64,000 bases of DNA from a virus (IMGVR_UViG_3300033070_001123); one strand, 5' to 3'. Counted from the stretch's first letter, positions 2 through 62,957 are shown. Made by a program: numbers and translations. Notes: a model not told the origin generated them from the sequence alone.

Positions 2-766
2 AACATGAGGCCTTGGAATGTCATTCAAAAACTTCACAGGAAGACCTCGGCATTGATTTGCGATCATCTCCCTCAATCTATTGCCGGGCTGGAAAGCAAG
101 CGTTGAAGATATAAAGACGAATGTAAAGTCCTTACGTTTTCTACTCAACCTGGCTATGATTGGCGTCAAAAACTCTTGACCCTTCCCAGGGAAGAAGTTA
201 GAAACACAGAGCAGCATCTTTTCTGTGTTTATGCCGTAATGCAATTTGAAATCAAAATCAGACTTAACAAACTCGCTCATATCAACCGAATTGTGAATTA
301 TTCTAACAGGGATACCCCAGTCTTTACAAGTCTTAACGTCAATATAAGACTCGGCATGAGCTAGAACCTTGAATTGTTGATGATTTCGCCTAAAAAGCTC
401 AGCAATGGCCTTATTTTGAGGTATTTCGGACCTCATTCTATTCATGCCAACAAGAGCAATGCTTTTATCAGAATTGATTTTCTCAAGATTCTTCAGCATG
501 GCTGGCCACATAAAGAACCAGTCGCTGTAAACCATAATATGATCAGCACCTTCAGAAACAAGAAGTTCTATGAACTGTTGCTCATTCAAAAAGCCAACAG
601 GAACAACTTTTACTCCGTTATGATATACAGAATGAGTGCCATGCTGACAGAAAACCGTACATAAGTTGCCTTTAGAAACGATATGTTCAGTTATTTGCTG
701 AACTATTCGCTCGGCTCCACCCGTATGAAAAGGTTGGGCAAAATTTGTGCAAACAATAAGCTTCAT
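2..766 (-). CDS. GT4 (GT-B) glycosyltransferase, 3' end outside window; absent from ORF track
   Basis: Manual translation from ATG at 766 (1 bp after the GT2 stop) is open to the edge: MKLIVCTNFAQPFHTGGAERIVQQI...IIHNSVD...LLCVSNFFPGKGQE, typical GT4 motifs. Confidence 0.85.
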   Translation of the reverse strand, partial: MKLIVCTNFAQPFHTGGAERIVQQITEHIVSKGNLCTVFCQHGTHSVYHNGVKVVPVGFLNEQQFIELLVSEGADHIMVYSDWFFMWPAMLKNLEKINSDKSIALVGMNRMRSEIPQNKAIAELFRRNHQQFKVLAHAESYIDVKTCKDWGIPVRIIHNSVDMSEFVKSDFDFKLHYGINTEKMLLCVSNFFPGKGQEFLTPIIARLSRKRKDFTFVFISSTLAFQPGNRLREMIANQCRGLPVKFLNDIPRPHV

Positions 767-767
767 A

Positions 768-1478
768 TTATCTCATTGGCAAAAACGCCTTACCAGACCA
801 TTTCTTCTTAAACTTATCGTAACTCTGCGTGAAAAACTTCATCCTATCCTTATCTTTACCTAGGGTCTGATGCGGTAAATGATCTATCTTCGCTAGACTA
901 TTCCAGCCTATTTTGAAACCAGCCTCTCTTGCTCTAAAGTTGAAATCAGGATCTTCAAAATAAGCGGGATTGAACTGCTCGTCAAAAAGCCCTAGCTTAT
1001 CAACGACCTCTTTCTTTACCATCATTCCGCCGCAACCGACATAGGTATATGGATCGCCTTTCTTCTTGCAGTTATGTCTTGGCATGAAACTCGAATCCAT
1101 AAGCCAAGCATCCGCTCCAACTAAATCATAACTACCGCTTTCCATAAACTCATGATACTGTTCAAGCCATCCCGCTCGAACAAACTGATCATTATCAAGA
1201 AAGCACAAAAGTTCTGTTGGGTCAGATTGATAAAGAGCATAACCCATGTTACGCCCGCCAATAACCCCAAGATTTCTGTCGTTGATAACGAGAGTATGGT
1301 TCTCGAACATTGAAAGAGCGTCTGTTAAATACTCTTTCGTTCCGTCCGTAGAACCATTGTCAATCATAATGAGATTGAAGGCCAAAGGTTCCGTGTATTT
1401 GAAAAGTAGCTCTATAAACTTCTCCGTTACAGCTTTACCGTTATAGGAGAGAACTACTATAGTTGTTTGCTTCGTCAT
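768..1478 (-). CDS. GT2 (GT-A) glycosyltransferase, 236 aa
   Basis: IVVLSYN, IDNGSTDGT, FLDND (DxD), GLFDEQF, YFEDPD motifs. Confidence 0.92.
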   Translation of the reverse strand: MTKQTTIVVLSYNGKAVTEKFIELLFKYTEPLAFNLIMIDNGSTDGTKEYLTDALSMFENHTLVINDRNLGVIGGRNMGYALYQSDPTELLCFLDNDQFVRAGWLEQYHEFMESGSYDLVGADAWLMDSSFMPRHNCKKKGDPYTYVGCGGMMVKKEVVDKLGLFDEQFNPAYFEDPDFNFRAREAGFKIGWNSLAKIDHLPHQTLGKDKDRMKFFTQSYDKFKKKWSGKAFLPMR

Positions 1479-1490
1479 TTTACATTCGGT

Positions 1491-4400
1491 TTACACTATT
1501 TCAACGGTATTCGACTGGGTTGCCGTACCTACACTAATGCCGTCAAACGGAATTACTTCGGCTTTCCATCTCTGTCCAGAAGCGGTATTCACAGCCGGAA
1601 CAATTCGGACATTCTGTAGAGATGGAACCTCTTCAAAGGTTGAAGAGCCGCTCAAGGCCCTAAACCATCTAATCGAACTCTGGTCGTTCTGAGTGCTTCC
1701 CTGCTGCTGAGATTCAGCGTCAACATAGGTATATGTCAACTGTAAAGCAGACGCAGAAGAAGCCGTTGGGCTAGGCGATACGGTTACGTTTCTAACAGTA
1801 GGAGGATCATTCTCTACGGAAACAGCAGCGCTTGTTACGGGATTTCCAATGATATTCTGAGAAGCAGGGAGTATTGTAACTTCTAAAACATTACCAATGG
1901 CAATGCCAACAATATTGTTCTTGACTTCGCCAGGTATAATTTCGTTATTGGATATTCCGCCAACCGTAACACCAAGGTCTCCCCTCTTGAATTCGATTCC
2001 ATTGACATACCAAATAATCTGAGAGCTAGTATTGCTGTCGCCATCTTGGAAGTAAGCGAAATCAGCAAACGCTCTTGTCGTTGTTATTACTGTATCTTGT
2101 ACTGTTCCGTCATTCTTCTTGCCCTTAATTGTTATGGCTGTTATGAATGGAGGAGCCTCTATTGCAGTAACAGAAGGAGAGCGAACAATGTCGCTAAACA
2201 AAATTCCATCACTAGCTTTAATTGTTGCATAAACAACATCGCCAACTCTCAATATGCTTTCTCCCTTTTCTCTTGCATATTGCTCATAGCTTGTTCCTGC
2301 GGGAACATTTTCAGGTCTAAACGACAAAGCGTAAACCCATATTGGGTCATTAATGTCATTGATGTTATTCCAGGTTCTTAGATTACGCAAGTATTCTATT
2401 TCAACTCCATTGATATACCAGCGTATAACGGTTTGATCTGTATCCTCGCTTCTCTGATTGATGTCAAAATACTTGTAAGACAAACTAATTGTCTGATAAA
2501 TCGTCAATGTACTTGGGACAACTCTAAAGTCAGTAATAGTCGGCGGTCTCTGCGACAATGGAGGCGGCAAGAAAACATTAGTGTTGTACATATACGCAAC
2601 ACCATCTATTTCAACAGGATTGTAAGAATCCATATTGAGGATTCTAACTCCAAGTCTTAGATTTCCTGCGTTCTCTATCGAAACAGAGAATGGTCCAAGC
2701 TGCTTAGAAGAGAATACGACAAGTCCCTCTTTAGGATAAAGCTCATATCCATCAGAGGCAACAGTCTCTCCGTCCTTATCAAGAATGGTTACTCTTGAAG
2801 TAACGTCCCACTTGCCATATCTAGCCTTCCACATAAAACCATTAACATTGTCAAGAGGCTCATTAAGGGTTGCGTCCTGCTCTTGATTGTAACGAATAGG
2901 TATGAATATCTTTCCGTACCTATCCGAGGCAGGTTGAGCGCCGCTATAGTAGTCAGACCAGTTATAAGACGAACTTGTTGTTGCGCCAACCTGTATGGTA
3001 CTAAGATCTGGTTTATTTGCAGACACCGCAACAGCTATTTGCTGAGGGCTAAAATCGGTTGTCTCTGGCTTCAAGTATATAAAGCTTTCAGTTGGTACAC
3101 TATACTTAATGTTGATAGCAGTTAGAGCAGGAACGCCAGGCGTTGGGATAAGATCATACTCGTTCTCTATATAAGAACTCAATCCGCTCAAAAGTGTAAC
3201 CTTGAACTTGATATATCTAGCATTGACATTTACAAGCGATATTTCCGTATTAGGATTGAACGAGTCGCTATAATCTGAATAGTTGAAGCCGTCTTCACTT
3301 GTTGCCATCCTCCAGCTACCATCTGTATTTGGGTATAGCTCGTAATCAAGAGATACAGTATTAATGATGCTGTTCTTACTCAAATCAATAACGCACTCAT
3401 ACAGTCCCCAACCAATTGAGCCTTCTACTCGACCCAACGAGTTATTCAATATCTCGTCGATATAGGCTGCGTCCAAAATAGTCTGGCTTTGACCGCCGGT
3501 TTGATTAGCAATGGTATCCAAAGAATCCGTATCTGTTCTACTTACCAAAGCTGACAAAGTAACAGGAAAGACAACAGAGAAGTTGTTGATTACAACAGGA
3601 ACTTTGCCAAAACCATCAATCGCTTGTACATCTTGTATTGCAGTATCAAGCGTGTTAATTGAAAGATTCTCTTCATTGTCCGTATTGACATAGATAACCT
3701 TGGCATATCGATCAAAGTCTTCATCAAGCATAATCGCCGCGTTCTTAACAAGAGCGTCGTAGAGAGGTGAAGCTCCAAAAGGAATCTCATTCCTAAGTCT
3801 TGTCAAACCTTTTGCCATATCCTCAAACTCTCCGTTCTCAACATGAACGATAATTTGAGGTATCCATTCGATATCGCTAAAGTAGCTTACCTCAGGGCTT
3901 TCTAGCTGAGGAGTTTGCGGAGGATTAAGATCGAAAACAGGATTATCGCTTTCCTTTAGAGATTGGTCAATGGTTTGATTATTTTCGGAATCTCTTCCTG
4001 GATCATAATCGTTTTGATTGGAGCTTTGTTCAACAGCTTGGCTTCCTTCAACGCTTCGGCATCCTTCAAACTCTGTAATGTCTCCGTTATTAGGAGATCC
4101 TGAGGAGCCTCCCGAACCGCCAGTGTCTGAGCCTGGCGTGTCTGAGCCTGACGAACCATCTGTTGTATTATTCGTTGTTGTGGAGTCTTCATTGTCTTTG
4201 ATATCTATTACTGTTTGACCATAATAAAATTCATCAAGAACTGTTATACGAACCTTGATCGTATAAGGATTTCTAACTTCACCTTCTTTGATAACAAGAG
4301 TGTTGTTACCTTCGTCGCCACCTTCACCGGCAACAGAATCTTGTATACCAAGCTTTTCTTTAATCTCAGATATCTTCTTCAAAATGTCATCGGCTCTTGG

Positions 4401-7400
4401 AAGCATAACAGTAGAAGCTACACCATCATAGATATAGAAATCATTTGAACTAAAGACAACAGGATAAACAAGAGCGTCTCTAAGCGCTTGATTATCAGAT
4501 TGTTGCTGAGATTGATCTCCGCCAGCAGTTTGATCGTTTCCTGCTTGAGAATTCGGGAACAAAAGTATACCCTGAACCAAAACTCTAACTTCTTTGGTAG
4601 GATGCTCTCCTACATCATTAAGCAATTCAATAGAAACAGTTGCAGACTGCTTACCGTCAAGACGGATAGAAGAAGGACTTACTCTTGCTTTGATTTGCAA
4701 AAATCCGGCTGGACGGCCACTTGTAAGTCCTCCGCAAGAATAGACATATCTCCAGTTATCGCTAGAGCAACCAAACGCGGTTTTAGCCGTAGGCATTCTT
4801 TCGCCTTCAGCATATGAGTAAACAGGAGAGCCTTCCGTAATAATATCAAGAAGATTGAGAATTTGAGACTTATCGCTTGTTCCACCCAAGAAATAATGCT
4901 GGTCCAAGATACTAACGCAAGCGCCTCTATACCTAGGAGAAGGAATCTGTCTATAAACATAGTCGTCAAGAGTAATTTCAAGCGTATCCAAATCTATTTC
5001 AAATGCGTCAGTAACAAACTGCAAAGGTTGCTCGCCTGTTTCCTCATTTCTTTCGCCTGGAATAGCTCCACCAACAACGTGAATCTTTGTTTGATTTGCT
5101 TCTGTGAATGCAAATGGAGAAACTCTATTGTAAAGAGCCAAATCTTCATCAACAAACTGATCACTCCAACTCCATGTTAGAGTTTCGAAATCAAACACAA
5201 GAATTCTATCATTAACAGCGTCAATGCTGCCTCTTGTTCCTATCTTTCTTATACCACCAATAATGTATGCTTTGCCATTTGAAACAACGCAAGCGCCCAA
5301 AGCAACTCCGTATGTATTCTGGTCAAACACAGGCATTGGAGCAAGCTCTTCCCAAGTATCATTAACAATATCATATCTTTCAACTGAACTAGAAATTACA
5401 AGCTCTGTTCCATTGGCTGTTATGCCGCCAAAGACATACACATAGCCATAGTCTTGAGCAGCCATATGATAAAATCTTGGCGTATTCATTGACTTTTTGA
5501 CATACCATTTGTCTTCGCCAATATCATACATCTCATTATAAGATAGAATAGACTTACCATTGAGACCGCCAATAGCAAACAGTCTTTCGCCATAGGCATC
5601 AAAATCCCAACTCGTTGTCAAGCAACCTCTTGGATAGTTCATGGACGCCTTTACTGTCCATTCATTAGAATAGGTATCATAAACGTCAAGAGCAGCGCTA
5701 AAGACGTTGCTAATCTCGCCTTCTGGTCTATCCTCAGGGCCTTCTTCTTTAGGTTGAGAAGGATCGTATTTGATAGTAACGCAACAAGTCATGCTGCGCT
5801 CAACATCGCCTCTCTTGTCATAGTTTGTTTCCGCTTGAACTTGAGCTTCAAACGCCGACTCAGGCCCAAAAGGAGCAACAAAGAATGAGGCAAAGCTTCT
5901 AACATTACCATCTGGATTCAATATTGAATCATTAAGCTTCTCTGTAAATACAGTATCATTCTGTAGTATAATCTTTTCTGGATTTTTGCCGCCAATAGTC
6001 AAAAAGACAGGAGTTCCATTAGGAACAGGACGGCCCTTAAATGTTACTTCAAGAACAAACTCATGAACAGCAACTCCGTCGCAAAGAAGTTTCTCGACAG
6101 ACTGACCGCTTCTTCTAATATCAACAATAGATATATCAAGAGGTTCTTTCAAATCAATAGTCGTTGGAGGAATACCTGTCTTGAGATCTCCTCCACCGCG
6201 AAGATACCTTGTCTCTCCATTGAAGTTTACGGTTGTTCTGCCGTCAATAACAGACAGTCCCTTCTTCTTGGCTAAGCCCGGAGGAGCTTCTATACAATCG
6301 CAAGAGTTCGAAGATTGTCCAGAATCAACATTGTCGTCTCCTGAACCAGAATCCGGCTGAGGTCTTCCTATGAACTTGTTTATTCTCAAATAGAAAGTTG
6401 TTGTTCCGCCAGTTTGCGCAAGAGGAATTTGAGCAAAACCTTCGGACTGATTCGCTTCATTAACAACATACTCTTCTATGTCCTCGTCATAAACAATTTC
6501 TAAGTTATCACCATATAATATTTCAAAGCTATCACCAGATTCTATTTCAACTATCTGTCCGTTATCGAGAACAAAAATTGGTCTATTTGCATTCTCTGCG
6601 CATTGTCTGAAGCAATCAGCAGTAGAGCCTCCAGTTACATTTGGGTCATGATAAACAGTGCAACGAACAAGGCTATAACCGTCAGCGTAAAGCGTGTTTA
6701 CATACTGAGGCATGTCCATAAGGAATCTTGAACCAAAACCTCTTCCTCCAAAATTGGCAGGATATATAATGGCTGGTCTTTCTTCAAAGGCACTAAGACC
6801 ATCATAAACAACCGAAGCTTTAATAGCATAAAGTTCAGGCAAATAAATGACGTTACCTGGACATGGTATATAAAGTTCCCATGTAACTCCGCAGGCGGGT
6901 CCGAAGAAGATTCTTCTTGCCATGCCACCTCTTGTGTAAGAGAAAACACCCGGTCCCGCTGGTACATTGTCTGTTGAATAGAATGGCCTATCCTTGGCGT
7001 TTCTTCCCTTTCTTAGATTCCAACGAACGACCTGCTGATCTGTAACAGGAATCTTTCTTGGCCTATCAACATTTGGACTATCTGGATCAATGAGATAGAT
7101 ATTCGCCATCTGCTCAGAAACATCAATACAATTTGATTCTGGCGGCTCAATTGTTGTTTCAACTCTTAAGATATTATCAAAAACTATGTATAACTTCTTA
7201 CGAGCATAATAACCATTGAAACCAACCTTTGTAAACAGCATCACTGCTTGAGGTGTTCTTGGAGCGCGAAGAGGAATGTCTGTATATGTAACTTGTCTTG
7301 TTGTTCCGTCGCTCAATCTTTGCAATCCAACTCTAAGAGGAATTGAAGTTGCAGGAGGTTGAACTGAACGACTTCTTCTAGTTGAGAATGTCGGAACAAA

Positions 7401-10400
7401 TGGCCTTCTTTTACCTGGTTCACCTGTTTGAGAACAAGGGTTTCCGCCAGATGGCTCTTCGTCACATTGAGGGTCAGAAGCTTCAAAAACAGCAACATTA
7501 CAGTTTCCGCCGTCAGGCAAAGCCTGTCCTCTATAAGTAACAACAACCCTAGCCATAAAAGGCCTTGAACGACGAACCCAACAACCGTCAAACTCTGCAA
7601 ACTTATCAGGATCAAAAAGAAGACCACCAGAAGATATGAATTCCTGATCGTCAAGAGGAACAGTCTGCTTGCATAGTATCTTTACTATGTCAGCGCTACC
7701 TGAAGACTGATTATCTGGTAATGGATCGTTTGTTGAACCCCCAGCAGACCTTCTCCTCTTTGACTTCTTTCTAGTTCCAGAGCTTGTTATAGTTCCAAAG
7801 TTTGCAGCGTTATCGCCTATATTGACAAGTTCCATTGCAAATGGATTTCTCATCTCTATGGTTACAGGTAATGATTCAAACTGGAAAACATTCTCAGAAG
7901 GATTGTCTCTATTAGGAATCTCATATGAAACAGTTATTTGAGCAGAAAGAGAGTTTATAGCAGAAAGAGTATCAAGATCAGGCGTCATTCTAAATACGCC
8001 TCTTATAAAGCCGCTTCCAACAACTGTAGAAGAAAGTATATAACAATCATCTGCTTCTGGAGTTAGAGTAGTTGTGTTGATAACTTCGCCAAATACATCT
8101 TCTGCAAGTTGAGCAGAACCAACGCTAGCTTTAGCAGAGAACTTAATCCTACTTGCGTCAGAAATAGGAGCGCCATATTCGTCTGTTATCTCAGCATACA
8201 AAGCAACTCGTTGGTCAAACCAAGCTTCAATCTCTTTCTGGAACTTAACAGGAGCGTCCCACCCAAGACTTATTGCATTTTCATTAACAACTTCATATCT
8301 AAACTGTTTAACCTCAAGCAACGGTATACCATCTTCGTCTGCATCATCAAGAGGAATTGCTGAAACATAAACAGGAGCAGACAGATTGCCGTATCTATCC
8401 GCTGCAACTACTGCATAGTAGTTTACAATCTCATTTTCAAGGTTCCTGTCAACAAACTCAACCTGACTTGGACTTCCGCTAAATACCAACAAAGCAGAAA
8501 AACTAACGCCTTCGTCATTGTTTATGATTGGTGGGCCTGTATCAGACCAATAAACAAAAATCTGCTCAACAGTATCATTATTGATTGCGTTCCATGTCAA
8601 ATACGTTTTATGATTACCCGCTCTAATCTGAACGTTTTCAACAGGCTCAATAAGAGGCGTTGTTATAGCCTTATTTCTATCGTCTCTACTTTTGAAAGCA
8701 GGAATCTTAATAGACAAAATCGGAGAATCAGAATCTAAGCTAAAGTTTCCTATAGCATTTTGCGAATAAATACGGAAGTTGTAAATTCTGTCATGAACAT
8801 AATCAAAAGGAAGCGTTACAACAAAGTCACCTGGTCCTGCGTTTGCTTCATAAACCAAATCACCATCTTCTTCATTTGAGGGATTTTCACCAAAGCCTTC
8901 AAAAACAAGAACAGGTTCGGCAGGAACGCCATTATTGTTTACAGGCGTTTGATAAGAAAACACGCCTGTACCAACTTCTGCTTTTCTTATGATACGAACC
9001 TTACCGCCTTCAAAGTTATAGTCGTCAGGAACAGAGTATCTAACAGCAACAATTCTATCTCCATTATCCAATACTTTTTCAGAAACTCTTTCATAACGAA
9101 CTGCGGCAGACGCAATATAGTTTGCAGATCGAATAGTATCATGAACGCTTATCTCAGTAAGCTTACCAAAGAAATGAGAAGCCTTTCCGCCAAGGTATAT
9201 ATGCATTGGCTCTTGACTGTAGTAACCCAAAGCTGTCAAAGAACCGCTACCAGCTTCAACGCCATTAACATAGAACGTAGCCGTAAGAGCCAAGAAATCA
9301 ACAGTAACAGCAACATGACTCCAAGCATTAGCTGTCAAAGCAATACTAGAAGAAGCAAACGTCAAATCGTCAAAGGTGAAAAACAACGTTCCGTCCGTAT
9401 TTGTTCCAAACCTAAATGACATCTTATCTAAAGAAATGGTCTCTCTAGATATAATACTTCTCTTGGCTGCAAAATTAAACGGGTAAGCCCAAGCCATGAA
9501 AGTGTATTTTGTCTTAATAAACTTACCGTCTTCGTCGTATCCTAAAAGCTTAGTATCAGTTCCGTCAAACCTAATGCCGCTAATGCCACTTGGAACATCG
9601 TTATTATTGAGCCAAACTACATCTTCGTTTGAAGACAAAAGCACAGGGCTATCGCTAAAATCATATGCGAATGTTCCTGTTGACTCATTAAGATGCCAAA
9701 GTCCAATAGTATTAGAATCTCTCTTAACACCTGAACCCGCAATCGTCCTATAAGTAAAACCGCCAACTCCATGAGGATAAATCTTGACTCTAGGAGAAGC
9801 CTTCAAAAATCTACCGCTACTAAAGATTCCGTTTGAATCAAAAGTATATGCGGCGTAGTAATATTGTTCATTCTCTTCAAGCTCGTCGTCAAATGCTCTT
9901 TCAACAAAACCTTCTGTAACTATATCTCCGTCAAGAGGGCCTGTAGGATAAGCTCCAAGCTTTCTAATAATTCGAACACCAGCATATCCGCTTTCTTGAT
10001 CGGCGAAGAAAGCAGAAGCAACGTCTGCTGTATTGTTTGTATTTACCTGATCTGTCTCTACAACCGCAAAGAAATTCAGCTTGATAGGAGTAGACCCAAG
10101 GCTTAGAAGATTATACTTCACTTCGCCGGGATAAGTCGCTTCGAGCCTATCAATCATTCGTCTTGTTATTTCGTGCCTTAGCCCGCTACTATCGTTCCAG
10201 CTAAGAGAACCGCTTTGGTCCATAACAACAGAAACCAATCTATCAGGAAGATTCAAGGCAACCTTATTCGTAGTTGAATCAATATCAACTATTTTGGTTT
10301 GCAAAAATACAGGCTCTAAGTCGTCTATATCAAACTTCTGAACAACCTTTGTCGCAATAGCCGACGCCGGAACAATCAGCTTACAAGCATTCTCATTTAT

Positions 10401-56656: not shown

Positions 56657-59600
56657 TTACTGAGCCTGTCTCATTTCTCTTAGAACCTGAGGAATAGCTT
56701 CCTTTGCCGCTGTAACCGCAACTTCAGCCATAGCCTGTCTAAAAGCACTTATAACTTCAGGGCTATTAACAGACCTTAGCGTGTCTATAAATGCTTTCTT
56801 GATTTCATCAGTATCTTTAACTACATCATTTATTGGATTTATAGAAGTCTTTGAATTTTTTATCTTACCATTTTCATCAACAAATGGACTCATTACAGAA
56901 CTGATAAAATTAGAGAACTTGGTCAAAGACGACGTTGCGCCATCAGTAGCTTTTTTATGTTCATCAAGAGCTTGTGTACTTCCGTATAGATTATCCGCCA
57001 TCGCAGCAGCAACCGAACCCTTCGACCTATCAACAATCCCAGTTACGGCTTCTGCTCCTTTTCTTATATCTCCAGCTTCCAAGTATTCGCCATAAGTAGA
57101 AAGAACTGCTTTCTCAGCCGCACCAGCAGCGCCCTCAGTTAGGCTTCCTACTCCAAATCTTCCAAACTCTCTACGTCCTTCAAGTTCAGATCCTGCTCTC
57201 AAAGCTCTAACTTTAGTTGGCGCACCCGCAACCAAGCTTCCCAATCTCTTTTCTTGGCTAATAACAATACGAGTAAACACGCCTTGCCCTGTATTCATTG
57301 CCGCAATAGCAGAAATATAACCTTCTCTAAGAGCCTTAGTAATTTCTGCCTGACGAGCCGTTGCCTGAACTATTTCGTTTTGTTTCTTAAGAACTTCATT
57401 TCTGTTAGCAAATTCTTGAACTTGATAACGTTGTTTTATTTCATTTGCTGCTTTTTCTTTATCTGCAATTGAAAGTGAATTATTAGACATTACCGCATTA
57501 AGTTCTTTTTGCTTATCTTGATTTAACTTATTAGCACTAGCTTGTAAGTCGCTAATCTGCCCCTCCATAATAGCCTTTTGCTGTTGCAATGACTGAACAA
57601 CCTGCTGTTGCATTTGAACAGACGCCTTTAGGCCAAAACCATAGCTGTTAGCAAGGTTCATTTGAGATTCTGCAAGACTTGTTTCAAGCTGTTGCTGGTT
57701 CAAGCTACCTTGTCTTATTTGTGTTATTGATTCTTGAAGAGAAACTTGCTTCTCTAAAGTCGCATTAATCTCAGCACTTCTTTGCAACTGGAAAACATCA
57801 TAGTCAAGATTGATTCCATAATTTGCTGAAAGCTCAGCCAAAGACTTCCTATATTCAGAACTTCCAGAACCTTGTGTTTTTCTAATATTATCTAGTTGAC
57901 CCATCTTTTCTTTTGCTGCCTTTTGCTTTTCTGGATCTAGTTGCGAAATTTGCAATCTAGCAGCAGCATCAAATGTTTCTCTAGAAACCTCTTTAGATTC
58001 CTTGAGGAACTTCATTTGCATATCCAATTCTTGAGACGCAGTATTTATAGCCGCAAGAGAGGTGGCAGAATCCCCCTGTCCAACCATGCCAGCCCTCATG
58101 CTACCCAAATTAACTATAGATTTTGTTAGTTCAAGTTGTTTTTCAGTCTTTTGAGATTGCTGATCTAACAATGTATTTACTCTCGCTAAAGTTTGAGCGT
58201 ATGGAGTTAAAGTAGAAGCAAGTTCTTGTTGTTCTTTATTCGTTTGCTTTATTTTTTCAAGCTCTGCTTTACGCTTTTCAATAACTTCGTTTAGCTTATC
58301 AGCGGTCTCTGTAAGACCTTGAAACTTTGCGTCTGACATTTCCTTTTCCAAAGGCAATATCATATTTCTTTCATAATCAATTTCTTTCTGCCTATTTCCC
58401 GTTGCGGTCATGTGTTCAATAGATAAGTCTTTATCTCTTTGCGTAAAATCACTAACCCTAACTTGGTCATTAAGTTGAGCTAGTTCTTTCTTCTCGTCTT
58501 CATTATAATCTCTACCAACACCAAAATATCCAAGACCCCACCAAGAACCCCTCATCCTATCAGCGTCTATCTCCGTCTGTCTTTTGGCTCGTTGAAGCTT
58601 AATACTTTCTGATTCATTGCGAAGCTTAATTTTGTCATAAGCATTTGCAGTATTTTGAATATTATCAGCTTGCTTGTAAACATTGTCCCTGATATCAAAA
58701 CCTAAAAGGCCAGCACCCATTGCCAAAGGATTTGTATAGTAAAGAGCATTCATTGCTGTTTGGCTTCTAGATATAAGATTTCCACCTGCCAAACCAACGA
58801 CAGCAGCGCCTATTATGGCTGCGCCAGTACCAACCGCTCCTCCAAGAAGGCTTCCTCCAGCAGCGCCCGCACCCACCCCTGCGCCAGCAGCGGCCCCGCC
58901 ACCAGCACCACCTGCGGCTGCGCCGCCAAAACCCGACACTCCTCTTATTGCTCCAAAAAGACCGCCAGCATTAGATCCTGTACGAATGAAATTACCAAGT
59001 TCAGTAAACTTAGCAATAAGATTTGGCAAGGCTCTAAATCCAGCAAAAGAACCCGCTAAACCAGCAAAAGCTGTCGCAGTTCCAGCTATAATGGAAACCC
59101 ATTTTGCGATTGGAATAATAATGCTTTTGATTGACAAAAGATAATCACCAACAAGCTTAGCCATAGGCATAATTTCTTGACCTATAGCCAAAGAAATATC
59201 TTCAAACAACTTATTCATGCTTCTAAAGAACTTGGCTTGATCGTCAATGCGCTGCTTTTCAAGCCTATCTTCAGCAGACATAGCTTTTCCGCCTTTAGCA
59301 AGCTCATCAAGTTTCTTTGCTTCAGAAATACCTATTTTACCAGCAGCTATAAGCTTAAGAGCAGAACTTTGAATGTCCCCCATTTGCTCTTTTGAACTTT
59401 TAGAACTATCAGAAAAAGTCTGCATTACAATGTCTTGAAATGCAAGAGACTTAGAGCCAATAGATTGCAAAGCCTGCATCATTTGTCCAACTTTTTCTGC
59501 CGCCCCACCCACGGCCTCAGAAATTGCGTCAAACATTGATGGCATAGCCTTAATATCTGCTAAATCAAAGCCAGACTCAAAAGTAGACATAAGCTGCAAT

Positions 59601-60097
59601 GTCTGCTCTCTTGTCCACTGGAATTGATTAGCCAATCCCTCTACTTTATTCTTTGTTTCAGATATGCCTTGACCATATTTTGTAAACTGAGAAGCAGTAG
59701 CCCTAAGTTCTACATTGTATTTGTTCAAGTTCTGTATGGCAGCGCCCATGCCAAGAGAGGTGCCGCCAAAAACGGCTCCAAAAGAAACAAACATAGAAGA
59801 AAGCTTTGCAACAGGAGCAACAACGGTCTCAGCAGCCTTCTTCAAATAACCAAAAGCCTCTTCTTGCTGTCTCAGCCTATTAGAAGCCTCCTCAACAGCA
59901 TCGCTAAAACGATGGTAGGCAGACCTAATAGAGTTCATTCTCTGTTCAATAATTGGAGCAAGATGCGCGAATTGATGCAGGTTCGTCTGAAAGACATTGA
60001 AGTTCTCTGTGAAATTAGGGTCGATAGAACCCTCAAACTTCAACTGAACAATTGCTTGACGAAATATCTCGCCTTCTGTTTGAACATTTTTTGCCAT
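56657..60097 (-). CDS. Tail tape measure protein, ~1146 aa (start revised from 60160 to ATG 60097)
   Basis: Helical A/Q/K/E-rich, central hydrophobic Gly/Ala segments, position after chaperones; AGGAA before 60097, whereas 60160 lies in the terminator. Confidence 0.85.
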   Translation of the reverse strand: MAKNVQTEGEIFRQAIVQLKFEGSIDPNFTENFNVFQTNLHQFAHLAPIIEQRMNSIRSAYHRFSDAVEEASNRLRQQEEAFGYLKKAAETVVAPVAKLSSMFVSFGAVFGGTSLGMGAAIQNLNKYNVELRATASQFTKYGQGISETKNKVEGLANQFQWTREQTLQLMSTFESGFDLADIKAMPSMFDAISEAVGGAAEKVGQMMQALQSIGSKSLAFQDIVMQTFSDSSKSSKEQMGDIQSSALKLIAAGKIGISEAKKLDELAKGGKAMSAEDRLEKQRIDDQAKFFRSMNKLFEDISLAIGQEIMPMAKLVGDYLLSIKSIIIPIAKWVSIIAGTATAFAGLAGSFAGFRALPNLIAKFTELGNFIRTGSNAGGLFGAIRGVSGFGGAAAGGAGGGAAAGAGVGAGAAGGSLLGGAVGTGAAIIGAAVVGLAGGNLISRSQTAMNALYYTNPLAMGAGLLGFDIRDNVYKQADNIQNTANAYDKIKLRNESESIKLQRAKRQTEIDADRMRGSWWGLGYFGVGRDYNEDEKKELAQLNDQVRVSDFTQRDKDLSIEHMTATGNRQKEIDYERNMILPLEKEMSDAKFQGLTETADKLNEVIEKRKAELEKIKQTNKEQQELASTLTPYAQTLARVNTLLDQQSQKTEKQLELTKSIVNLGSMRAGMVGQGDSATSLAAINTASQELDMQMKFLKESKEVSRETFDAAARLQISQLDPEKQKAAKEKMGQLDNIRKTQGSGSSEYRKSLAELSANYGINLDYDVFQLQRSAEINATLEKQVSLQESITQIRQGSLNQQQLETSLAESQMNLANSYGFGLKASVQMQQQVVQSLQQQKAIMEGQISDLQASANKLNQDKQKELNAVMSNNSLSIADKEKAANEIKQRYQVQEFANRNEVLKKQNEIVQATARQAEITKALREGYISAIAAMNTGQGVFTRIVISQEKRLGSLVAGAPTKVRALRAGSELEGRREFGRFGVGSLTEGAAGAAEKAVLSTYGEYLEAGDIRKGAEAVTGIVDRSKGSVAAAMADNLYGSTQALDEHKKATDGATSSLTKFSNFISSVMSPFVDENGKIKNSKTSINPINDVVKDTDEIKKAFIDTLRSVNSPEVISAFRQAMAEVAVTAAKEAIPQVLREMRQAQ

Positions 60098-60154
60098 AGA
60101 GATTCCTGCCCGAAAAACTGCAATAATGCGGGTACTTATGAATTCGACCAAATT

Positions 60155-60184
60155 AAACAAAAACCTCTACCTAAGCAGAGGTTT
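60155..60184 (-). terminator. Rho-independent terminator after the membrane-protein gene
   Basis: AAACCTCTGC-TTAG-GTAGAGGTTT then TTGTTT on the minus strand. Confidence 0.8.
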
Positions 60185-61898: not shown

Positions 61899-62957
61899 TC
61901 AGGTGAGAGGCTGGAAATAGCCAGGAGCGGATGGACCGCCAAATGAGTTGGAAGCATTGTCAACAGATACGTTGCAAGCACCAAGCTCCAATGCCTCATA
62001 ATCATTTTCACAGTCGCCAAGGGCGCTGAAAGGCATTCTTGTTTCAACAAGATCGTTACTAATAGCAACTTCTTCAATCTGGAAGATTACACCCCAAAGA
62101 GCGGTTGCCCAATAAGGAACAGTTGCGCTACCAAGAGTATAACCAAACTGAATCTTAGTTCTAGAAGTAAAGCGATTCTGGTTGTTATATACGAAATCAT
62201 GGAACTGCTTGTTCGCAAAACCCATAAGAGTCAAACTACCTTCAATTGACCTCTTACGAGCAGTAATATCCTGAGGAACAAGCTTACCATTCAAAGTGTA
62301 GAAACGATCTGCATTGTTGTTAAGAGTTACTTCAAAAGCTCTAATAAACGAACCTGGAACAACAATATTCTCTTCTCTTGCAAAGACGTTGATTCGGAAA
62401 TCGTTCCAAGTAACAACGCGAGCAGGAGCCAACATTGTTGGTTCTCTTTCAGTTGTAAGAGCTTCTCTTACGTTATCAGTAACGTTTGCTCCACCAATAA
62501 CTCCAAAGTTGATCTTTACAACGTCAGCTTGAGTGACGTTAATTCTCATGGTATTAATGATGCAGTTTGGATAACGGAAAGCGGTGTTGTCTGTATAGCG
62601 AACGTCTACATTGAACTGGTTAACAAGACGACCAACTTGGTCTCTCTTAGCAGCAATGTTCCAGAGGCGATTTGCTAGATTTGTTTGGCAAGTAGCGTCT
62701 GGCTCGCCGCAATCCTTGCCTGTACCATTTTGAATACCTTCATGAACAAGAGGGAACTCAGCGGAACCGTCTACCATACGGGGACCAACTTGGTAGAGAG
62801 TTCTGTCGATACGACCGTCAACAACGTCAGGATATGTTATGTCTTGCTTGGCTCGTATATCACAAGACAAGGCTCTTACAAAGATTTCTTGGCCGATAGA
62901 CCCTCCTGAGAATCTAACGGAACCAACAAATCCCATTTGTGCTGTTGGAATAGGCAT
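61899..62957 (-). CDS. Major tail tube protein, 352 aa, two tandem tube-fold halves
   Basis: VGPRMVDGSAEF / ARKRSIEGSLTL internal repeat; YPNCIINTMRINV; FEVTLNNN; strong AAGGAG RBS; position upstream of chaperones. Confidence 0.8.
   Translation of the reverse strand: MPIPTAQMGFVGSVRFSGGSIGQEIFVRALSCDIRAKQDITYPDVVDGRIDRTLYQVGPRMVDGSAEFPLVHEGIQNGTGKDCGEPDATCQTNLANRLWNIAAKRDQVGRLVNQFNVDVRYTDNTAFRYPNCIINTMRINVTQADVVKINFGVIGGANVTDNVREALTTEREPTMLAPARVVTWNDFRINVFAREENIVVPGSFIRAFEVTLNNNADRFYTLNGKLVPQDITARKRSIEGSLTLMGFANKQFHDFVYNNQNRFTSRTKIQFGYTLGSATVPYWATALWGVIFQIEEVAISNDLVETRMPFSALGDCENDYEALELGACNVSVDNASNSFGGPSAPGYFQPLT

Follow-up and report, generated by a model that had tools for sequence, protein, structure and literature searches.

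Two distant segments of a giant phage tail-region protein appear to be complementary parts of one VWA domain

The window that we analyzed is a 64,000-nucleotide stretch of viral DNA (IMGVR_UViG_3300033070_001123). One of its genes, P0001, encodes a giant multi-domain protein of 3,264 amino acids (aa; Table 1), and our subject is two segments of this protein, the N piece and the C piece, that resemble different parts of a von Willebrand factor A (VWA) domain with a metal ion-dependent adhesion site (MIDAS). The first-pass annotation of the window had proposed a single discontinuous VWA domain at 3490-10235, which corresponds to about residues 351-2598. The minus strand carries all of the large open reading frames (ORFs) of the window, among them genes for glycosyltransferases and for several 1,100-2,800-aa proteins. 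Upstream of the giant gene and on the same strand are a tape-measure-like protein (phrog_167, 56657-60160) and a minor tail protein (phrog_290, 61899-62957). With these neighbors, the giant gene lies in a phage tail morphogenesis block, of which it forms the distal end, and its source is an uncultured giant ('mega') phage. The 28 near-full-length homologs are on contigs of 30-505 kb; the viral contigs from IMG/VR that carry homologs are 160-498 kb; and a related genome (G002) is complete at 498,568 bp, with direct terminal repeats. Megablast of the giant gene against deposited phage genomes found no matches. Among the PHROGs, the tail-fiber families gave no match, and the only matches were to three PHROGs of unknown function, via the Kelch part of the protein. 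The domain content (LamG, Kelch, FN3, and VWA) suggests that the protein may be a tail fiber or adhesin that is part of the virion and binds the host surface.

Table 1. Features of the giant gene and of the protein that it encodes. On the minus strand of the window, the codon of residue r has a high coordinate of 11285-3(r-1).
Feature	Residues	Window positions	Strand	Basis
Whole giant gene, P0001	3,264 aa	1491..11285	(-)	ORF list and translation
VWA N piece: beta1, MIDAS loop, alpha1, beta2	~347-399	10089..10247	(-)	Pfam VWA_2, AlphaFold2, hhalign
MIDAS motif D356-Q-S358-G-S360	356-360	10206..10220	(-)	conservation in 110 non-redundant sequences
Nested insertion (~2,075 aa)	~400-2474	3864..10088	(-)	gap between the N and C profile matches
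FN3-like domain, first module of the insert	~431-520	9726..9995	(-)	AlphaFold2 pLDDT 80-90; Foldseek FN3 probability ~1.0
Laminin_G_3 / concanavalin-like domain	591-725	9111..9515	(-)	Pfam PF13385, E = 2.6e-16
Kelch beta-propeller	~1860-2043 (may extend to ~2170)	5157..5708	(-)	Pfam Kelch E = 1.8e-22; PDB Kelch chains, E down to 1e-27
Low-complexity Ser/Gly/Asp/Asn/Thr-rich tether	~2375-2470	3876..4163	(-)	translation; directly before the C piece
VWA C piece: beta3 to last helix	~2475-2625	3411..3863	(-)	AlphaFold2, VIA-align, Foldseek, ESM Atlas, hhalign
Ser2506, fourth MIDAS ligand position (canonical Thr)	2506	3768..3770	(-)	aligned to T of GGGT in contiguous VWA domains
Asp2536, fifth MIDAS ligand, TD motif after beta4	2536	3678..3680	(-)	aligned to D of LTDG in contiguous VWA domains

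The N piece looks like the beginning of a VWA domain. VVMDQSGS begins at residue 353, which places D356, and the positions that had been read off for D356, G2504, D2536, and G2598 are all correct in the translation. If the N piece of the window protein is scanned alone, it matches positions 3-52 of the 107 positions of Pfam's VWA_2 profile (E = 0.013-0.033), with a score of 15-17 bits, which is below the Pfam cut-off of 27. The same half-match is present in 13 of 14 family members (best E = 1.2e-5), and three of them match PF00092. In an AlphaFold2 model of the N region (residues 296-560, 36 sequences, pLDDT of 71; pLDDT is the predicted local distance difference test), we found beta1 (349-357), alpha1 (369-384), and beta2 (389-397), followed by a low-confidence stretch at about 398-435 (pLDDT 50-60) and by an FN3 domain that is predicted with confidence. 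The earlier statement that the helix and the strand end near residue 400 was thus accurate, as the split falls between beta2 and beta3. When the N piece was compared to PDB sequences with HMMER, the only VWA-like matches were weak (PTMP1, E = 0.66, and a hemolysin, 0.24) and ranked below a chance match to a dUTPase. The Foldseek results for the N-region model are dominated by FN3, and the N piece, at ~50 residues, is too small to be searched alone. By itself, then, the N piece is predicted to be an incomplete VWA domain.

The C piece appears to encode the rest of the fold, in the order beta3 (QIIVHV), alpha2, the GxS loop, alpha3, beta4 with its TD motif, alpha4, beta5, alpha5, beta6, and a last helix. 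Its motifs are GASPLYDAL, which starts at G2504; VIYVNTDNEEN, which includes D2536; and QTGG, which ends at G2598. The AlphaFold2 model of this region (residues 2455-2650, 45-sequence alignment, mean pLDDT 79) has six helices and just three strands (2531-2535, 2564-2569, and 2599-2603), which are beta4-beta6, and it lacks the central strand. The first ~20 residues of the model are unstructured (pLDDT < 50). Its best Foldseek matches are VWA domains (ITIH1, TFIIH p44/Ssl1, TEM8, BatB, and vWF A3), and VIA-align superposes it on solved VWA domains with Z of 10-12 and a root-mean-square deviation of 2.1-3.1 Å over ~130 residues. In these superpositions, model residues 21-171 (protein residues 2475-2625) match only the C-terminal two-thirds of the targets: residues 45-189 of 190 in the CD11b I domain, 178-318 in alphaM, 189-334 in alpha2, 54-207 in BatB, 56-191 in Rpn10, 334-476 in ITIH1, and 111-240 in p44. 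The first 45-55 residues of the targets, which are left uncovered, are beta1 (with DxSxS), alpha1, and beta2, and these are what the N piece encodes. As a further lead, every one of the nearest named ESM Atlas clusters of the C piece is a VWA family (scores of 0.92-0.94). Like the N piece, the C piece by itself is predicted to be an incomplete VWA domain. The first-pass annotation had proposed that neither half has its partner nearby, which holds: the N half is followed by FN3, and the C half is preceded by about 90-115 low-complexity residues. Nor does either half form a complete domain of its own, as both AlphaFold2 models are incomplete.

If the two pieces are joined in silico, they align as one domain. 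We compared profiles of the N piece (up to beta2), the C piece, and their combination to contiguous VWA domains with hhalign. The templates (L069-L071), which were found by a pattern scan with the N-piece alignment, have uninterrupted VWA domains that match PF00092 across profile positions 1-166 of 174 (E = 5e-16 and 1.5e-18). The N piece alone scored 74 and aligned to template positions 12-49 (reaching ~60 in the joined alignment), and the C piece alone scored 44 (probability 91.7%, E = 7.6e-7, template positions 72-171). The joined profile gave a probability of 98.9% and E = 2e-17 over 159 columns, in a collinear alignment without gaps at the junction, which places QIIVHV on beta3, GASP on GGGT (with S2506 on the MIDAS threonine), and TDNEEN on LTDG (with D2536 on the MIDAS aspartate). 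With a reversed profile (C followed by N), only the N part aligns, so the scores are additive only in the natural order. Together the two pieces have ~53 + ~151 residues, or about 204, which is a normal size for a VWA domain, and the split point is the beta2-beta3 hairpin. The MIDAS motif DxSxS...T...D is present as D356-x-S358-x-S360, S2506 (serine for threonine), and D2536. The six-stranded sheet is recovered in parts only: the C piece superposes on beta3 to the end, and the N piece is predicted to form beta1-alpha1-beta2. Instead of one contiguous domain of ~170-200 residues, the parts are 2,075 residues apart. In Pfam, the whole protein matches only Laminin_G_3 and Kelch, and not VWA, because splitting the domain leaves it below the gathering score. 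So the expectation that VWA profiles would match the two halves in a complementary way is borne out by profile-profile and structural comparisons, but plain Pfam sees the N half only. Taken together, the hhalign results, the structural ranges, and the VWA_2 match of the N half to positions 3-52 indicate that the two segments complement each other, in collinear order, as parts of a single VWA fold with a full MIDAS.

The putative metal ligands are the most constrained part of the protein. Across 110 non-redundant pairs of N and C pieces, D356, G359, S360, and D2536 are 100% conserved and S358 and S2506 are 99% conserved; the sole exceptions among the MIDAS ligands are S358T and S2506T, which occur once each. 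Besides the ligands, the near-invariant columns are G359, W363, D365, R370, G2504, G2598, and G2627. Similarly, the most conserved 60-residue windows of the full protein are at 2521-2620 (identity of 0.68-0.71) and 341-460 (about 0.66), as compared to a mean of 0.51.

The two pieces also occur together across a large family. We scanned 65 loci with profile hidden Markov models (HMMs) of both pieces and found both, with N upstream of C, wherever there was sufficient upstream DNA; the distance between them was 1,835-2,955 residues. A search of 1.8 billion representative sequences with the C-piece profile gave 194 clusters at E <= 0.001. Among the best 150 of these clusters, 71 have both pieces on one chain, always with N before C and separated by 1,456-2,876 residues (median 1,883; minimum protein length 2,236 aa), and 75 have the C piece without the N piece. 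The co-occurrence of the pieces in a fixed order is far beyond chance, because they keep this order in every sufficiently long relative that we found. The pieces are inseparable in evolution, with the metal ligands under the strongest constraint in the protein. The family data also address the possibility of an artefact: as the window comes from an uncultured metagenomic phage, the giant ORF could be a chimeric assembly, or a miscalled ORF that fuses unrelated genes. The architecture recurs, however, among 28 near-full-length homologs, in 194 representative clusters, and on 50+ independent contigs, including the complete genome of 498,568 bp, so this explanation is effectively refuted by independent assemblies.

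In several lineages, the giant gene has been cut within the insert to give two adjacent ORFs, at three or more different points. First, in L007, L026, L041, L043, and L045, an N-ORF of about 2,000 aa is followed by a C-ORF of about 1,020-1,050 aa, with the cut right after the Kelch propeller. Second, L042 has an N-ORF of at least 1,524 aa and a C-ORF of 1,568 aa. Third, L056, L061, and L063-L065 have an N-ORF of about 1,280 aa and a C-ORF of about 1,500 aa. (A less clear case is L049, with a possible cut into 736 and 3,214 aa.) Many of the proteins with only the C piece fall into size classes of about 1,000-1,050, 1,050-1,096, and 1,420-1,560 aa, and most of them begin with methionine. The ORF junctions at the splits (TAATTATG, TAATG, TAAAATG, and a ATGTTTGA overlap) are typical of neighboring genes, and therefore these are not random frameshifts. 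All five MIDAS residues are kept in 10 of 10 split loci. Phages with the split gene necessarily make the N and C pieces as parts of different polypeptides, so if the pieces form one domain, it must also assemble in trans.

The explanation that we favor, and which we consider likely, is that a single VWA/MIDAS domain is encoded discontinuously, that its two pieces assemble into it, and that the insert is nested in the beta2-beta3 hairpin. Residues ~347-399 would supply beta1 (with the DxSxS loop), alpha1, and beta2, and residues ~2475-2625 would supply beta3 onward, with Ser2506 and Asp2536. Beta2 and beta1 of the N piece would intercalate between the C piece's beta3 and beta4, for a sheet order of 3-2-1-4-5-6 and a hydrophobic core and metal site that are common to both segments. 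The MIDAS would combine three ligands from the N piece with two from the C piece, so that the metal ion bridges the segments. In VWA domains, the beta2-beta3 hairpin is on the MIDAS face. The base of the ~2,075-residue insert would then be tied shut, and the insert would form a closed giant loop that exits on that face, with the domain arrays at the N-terminus (1-340) and at the C-terminus (2627-3264) exiting from the opposite face. According to PMC3919171, the termini of VWA domains are normally close together on the face opposite the MIDAS. Where the gene is cut within the insert, two separate polypeptides would be joined by this complementation. The split VWA domain would thus be a non-covalent and probably metal-stabilized snap-together joint in a large tail-associated, adhesin-like protein, and a free coordination site of the MIDAS may bind an acidic ligand of the host surface or of another virion protein.

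More tentatively, the two pieces could be a snap fastener: a tag of ~55 residues (beta1-alpha1-beta2) and an acceptor of ~150 residues that assemble into one domain, perhaps only when Mg2+ or Mn2+ is bound across their interface, and that let giant phages build, exchange, and re-cut their adhesin arms as separate genes. We would give this broader idea less than even odds. If it is true, then modular evolution by fission and fusion can take place inside a domain, and the joint could be switched by metal during assembly or infection.

A second possibility is that the domain is swapped, with the N piece of one chain pairing with the C piece of another copy and cross-linking an oligomer or a lattice rather than closing an intramolecular loop, even where the pieces are fused. 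The lineages with split genes are proof that the pieces are able to work from two different chains, phage fiber and adhesin proteins are commonly oligomeric, and an insert of ~2,075 aa should make it no easier, entropically, for the pieces to meet within a chain than between chains. Nevertheless, this seems unlikely, as there is no evidence of oligomerization for the giant protein and the conserved flexible tether of ~90 aa before the C piece suits a chain that returns to its own start. Also, the partner in the split forms is a different gene product, so swapping within a homo-oligomer is not needed.

Several results weigh against a single domain made from both segments. Plain scans with HMMER, against Pfam, or against PDB sequences do not see the C piece as a VWA domain (among 14 members, Pfam finds no VWA in the C piece, and DUF1194 in just one, E = 0.063), and its assignment comes from structure prediction, hhalign, and language-model features. 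Mean-field direct coupling analysis (DCA) between the pieces, which is underpowered with an effective number of sequences of ~100, shows no clear beta1-beta4 signal, and inter-piece pairs are at about chance frequency among the top 40. There is an extra conserved strand-like segment at 400-411, in addition to the strands assigned above; the VWA score from hhalign is unchanged with or without residues 400-418, which are also of low confidence in the AlphaFold2 model. Finally, among the natural relatives, there is none in which a stretch of 1,200 aa includes both pieces. The search with the C-piece profile returned giant proteins, C-ORFs, and fragments and no contiguous or short-insert relatives; the C-piece profile had no matches among proteins of 107-368 aa; and a search with the N region at shorter lengths found one fragment only. 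Homologs with shorter inserts, which the first-pass annotation had suggested looking for, were thus not found (the minimum gap is 1,456 aa).

These results raise a third possibility, that the pieces do not associate at all and are relics of two former VWA domains, or small modules that pack on their neighbors. In its favor, DCA gives no clear inter-piece contacts, and HMMER alone does not recognize the C piece as VWA. However, we think that this is quite improbable. The pieces are exactly complementary to each other and collinear with a contiguous VWA domain, with no overlap and no gap, and each piece alone is missing a viable sheet. The five metal ligands, which are spread over both pieces, are invariant in 110 sequences down to ~25% identity, split genes included, and none of the 150 best clusters has a complete VWA domain at either position. 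We therefore still expect that the N and C pieces pack into one domain, with fairly good confidence.

The phage VWA domain, which is split in nature, is an extreme case of nested insertion. Domain insertions usually consist of one domain in a loop. Here the hairpin beside the metal site of a ~200-residue fold accommodates 1,450-2,900 residues, or a dozen or so domains, and the arrangement is stable across a large and diverse family of giant-phage proteins. As the insert has been cut repeatedly and neither half nor any metal ligand has been lost, nature appears to be able to rebuild the VWA fold from two chains. This bears on how giant multi-domain proteins fold and grow and on how phages modularize huge adhesins, and it raises the question of whether the pair could be a genetically encoded, possibly metal-dependent, tool for protein ligation or complementation. 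It is also a warning for annotation, as standard HMM scans miss the split VWA domain entirely.

The insert begins with a conserved outgoing segment (TPIKLNFFAVVE), which is followed by FN3, LamG, further beta-rich modules, the Kelch propeller, and the disordered tether. Of the FN3, LamG, Ig, and Kelch modules that the first-pass annotation had proposed, LamG (with Pfam) and Kelch (with both Pfam and PDB sequences) were verified, and FN3 is supported by Foldseek. The tether is variable and of low complexity in all homologs. The first-pass annotation described the insert as an arm whose two sides run out and back as a paired hairpin, but the disordered tether of ~90 residues could equally be the return path of the chain, in which case the body of the insert may be either extended or compact. 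In P0027, an 'IFSDGSGS' motif that begins 56 residues ahead of the C piece resembled a local beta1; it aligns to linker sequence that is not conserved, and we rejected it as a chance match. Mid-insert, at residues ~1155-1185 (window ~7730-7830 (-)), there is a strongly basic stretch, KKSKRRRS, followed by a Gly/Ser/Asn/Asp-rich stretch. The basic patch could be a linker or a processing site.

The closest contiguous relatives that we compared are the hhalign templates, which are RHS-type wall-associated proteins of Lachnospiraceae/Bacillota. They share the unusual, extended MIDAS signature IDQSGSMSWNDPxxYR, the GxT/S-LY-A helix, LTD, and TxGG with the phage family. In contrast to the phage protein, which has a multi-domain array of ~2,075 aa between beta2 and beta3, their VWA domain of ~170 aa is uninterrupted, and their fourth MIDAS ligand is threonine rather than serine. 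From these shared motifs, they may represent the bacterial subfamily that gave rise to the phage VWA domain. (The architecture of these proteins is CBM_2, TSP3, VWA, DUF6531, SH3_3, and RHS.) There is also a second VWA-like domain in the same giant phage lineage: in the complete G002 genome, a 612-aa ORF (L067:202-2040 (+)) has a contiguous but degenerate VWA-like domain at its C-terminus (VWA_2 E = 1.4e-4, profile positions 2-106 of 107), with a MIDAS loop of DGSTS.

Integrin I (alphaA) domains have the same fold and MIDAS geometry (Z of ~10 between the C-piece model and alphaM, alpha2, and alphaX). In the integrin beta I-like domain, a specificity-determining loop is inserted in the same betaB-betaC hairpin, beside the MIDAS, and integrins also show nested domain insertion, with the I domain in the propeller and betaI in the hybrid domain. 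However, the insertions into integrin VWA domains are tens of residues long, as compared to the 1,456-2,876 residues and dozen or so domains of the phage family, and in integrins the VWA domain is usually the guest, whereas in the phage protein it is the host. To our knowledge, the insertions into VWA folds (the specificity-determining loop of integrin beta, the arms of pilus adhesins) are tens of residues long, and we know of no gene fission through the domain in VWA adhesins of the RrgA/GBS104 type. The inserted arms of those adhesins are short elaborations of a contiguous domain, unlike in the phage protein. The context is similar: the pilus tip adhesins RrgA and GBS104 and MIDAS adhesins such as Bd0875 (PMC11003981) are also surface proteins that combine a MIDAS VWA domain with Ig-like or other binding modules.

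The mechanism that we propose, in which an incomplete fold is completed by strands from outside to give a very stable joint, is the same as in the donor-strand complementation of chaperone-usher pili, split inteins, and split GFP. The phage system differs from these in its fold, in that the donor would give two strands, one helix, and three of the five metal ligands, and in that fused (cis) and two-gene (trans) forms occur within one family. Searches of the full-text literature found no description of a VWA domain that is interrupted on such a scale or split between genes.

Several other features of the protein and its surroundings may be of use. Right after the C piece, residues ~2627-2790 (window 3336-3410 (-) and downstream) look like a discoidin (F5_F8_type_C-like) domain. 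A homolog (P0012) has a weak match to PF00754 here, and G2627, at the start of this post-VWA domain, is 98% conserved. The C-terminus of the protein (residues ~2960-3264, window 1491-2400 (-)) has at least three Ig-like repeat units that share the motif W[YF]-x-N/R-G (IRWYINGVEI, IIWYVNGIEF, and IRWFRAL), and BLAST finds internal repeat matches. One clear family member (L068, CAWBYW010000004.1; N-piece HMM E = 3.5e-18), which resembles the L065 type, is at the end of a 289-kb contig that was binned in a deltaproteobacterial metagenome-assembled genome. This is either a misbinned giant-phage contig or a prophage or clue to the host. Finally, the giant gene is followed directly by a GT2 glycosyltransferase gene (window 768-1478 (-)) and then a GT1/GT4 glycosyltransferase gene (2-766 (-)). 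This synteny is kept in every relative that we examined (e.g., L007-L014), down to 24% identity, and we speculate that these glycosyltransferases could act on the giant protein's Ser/Thr-rich linkers.

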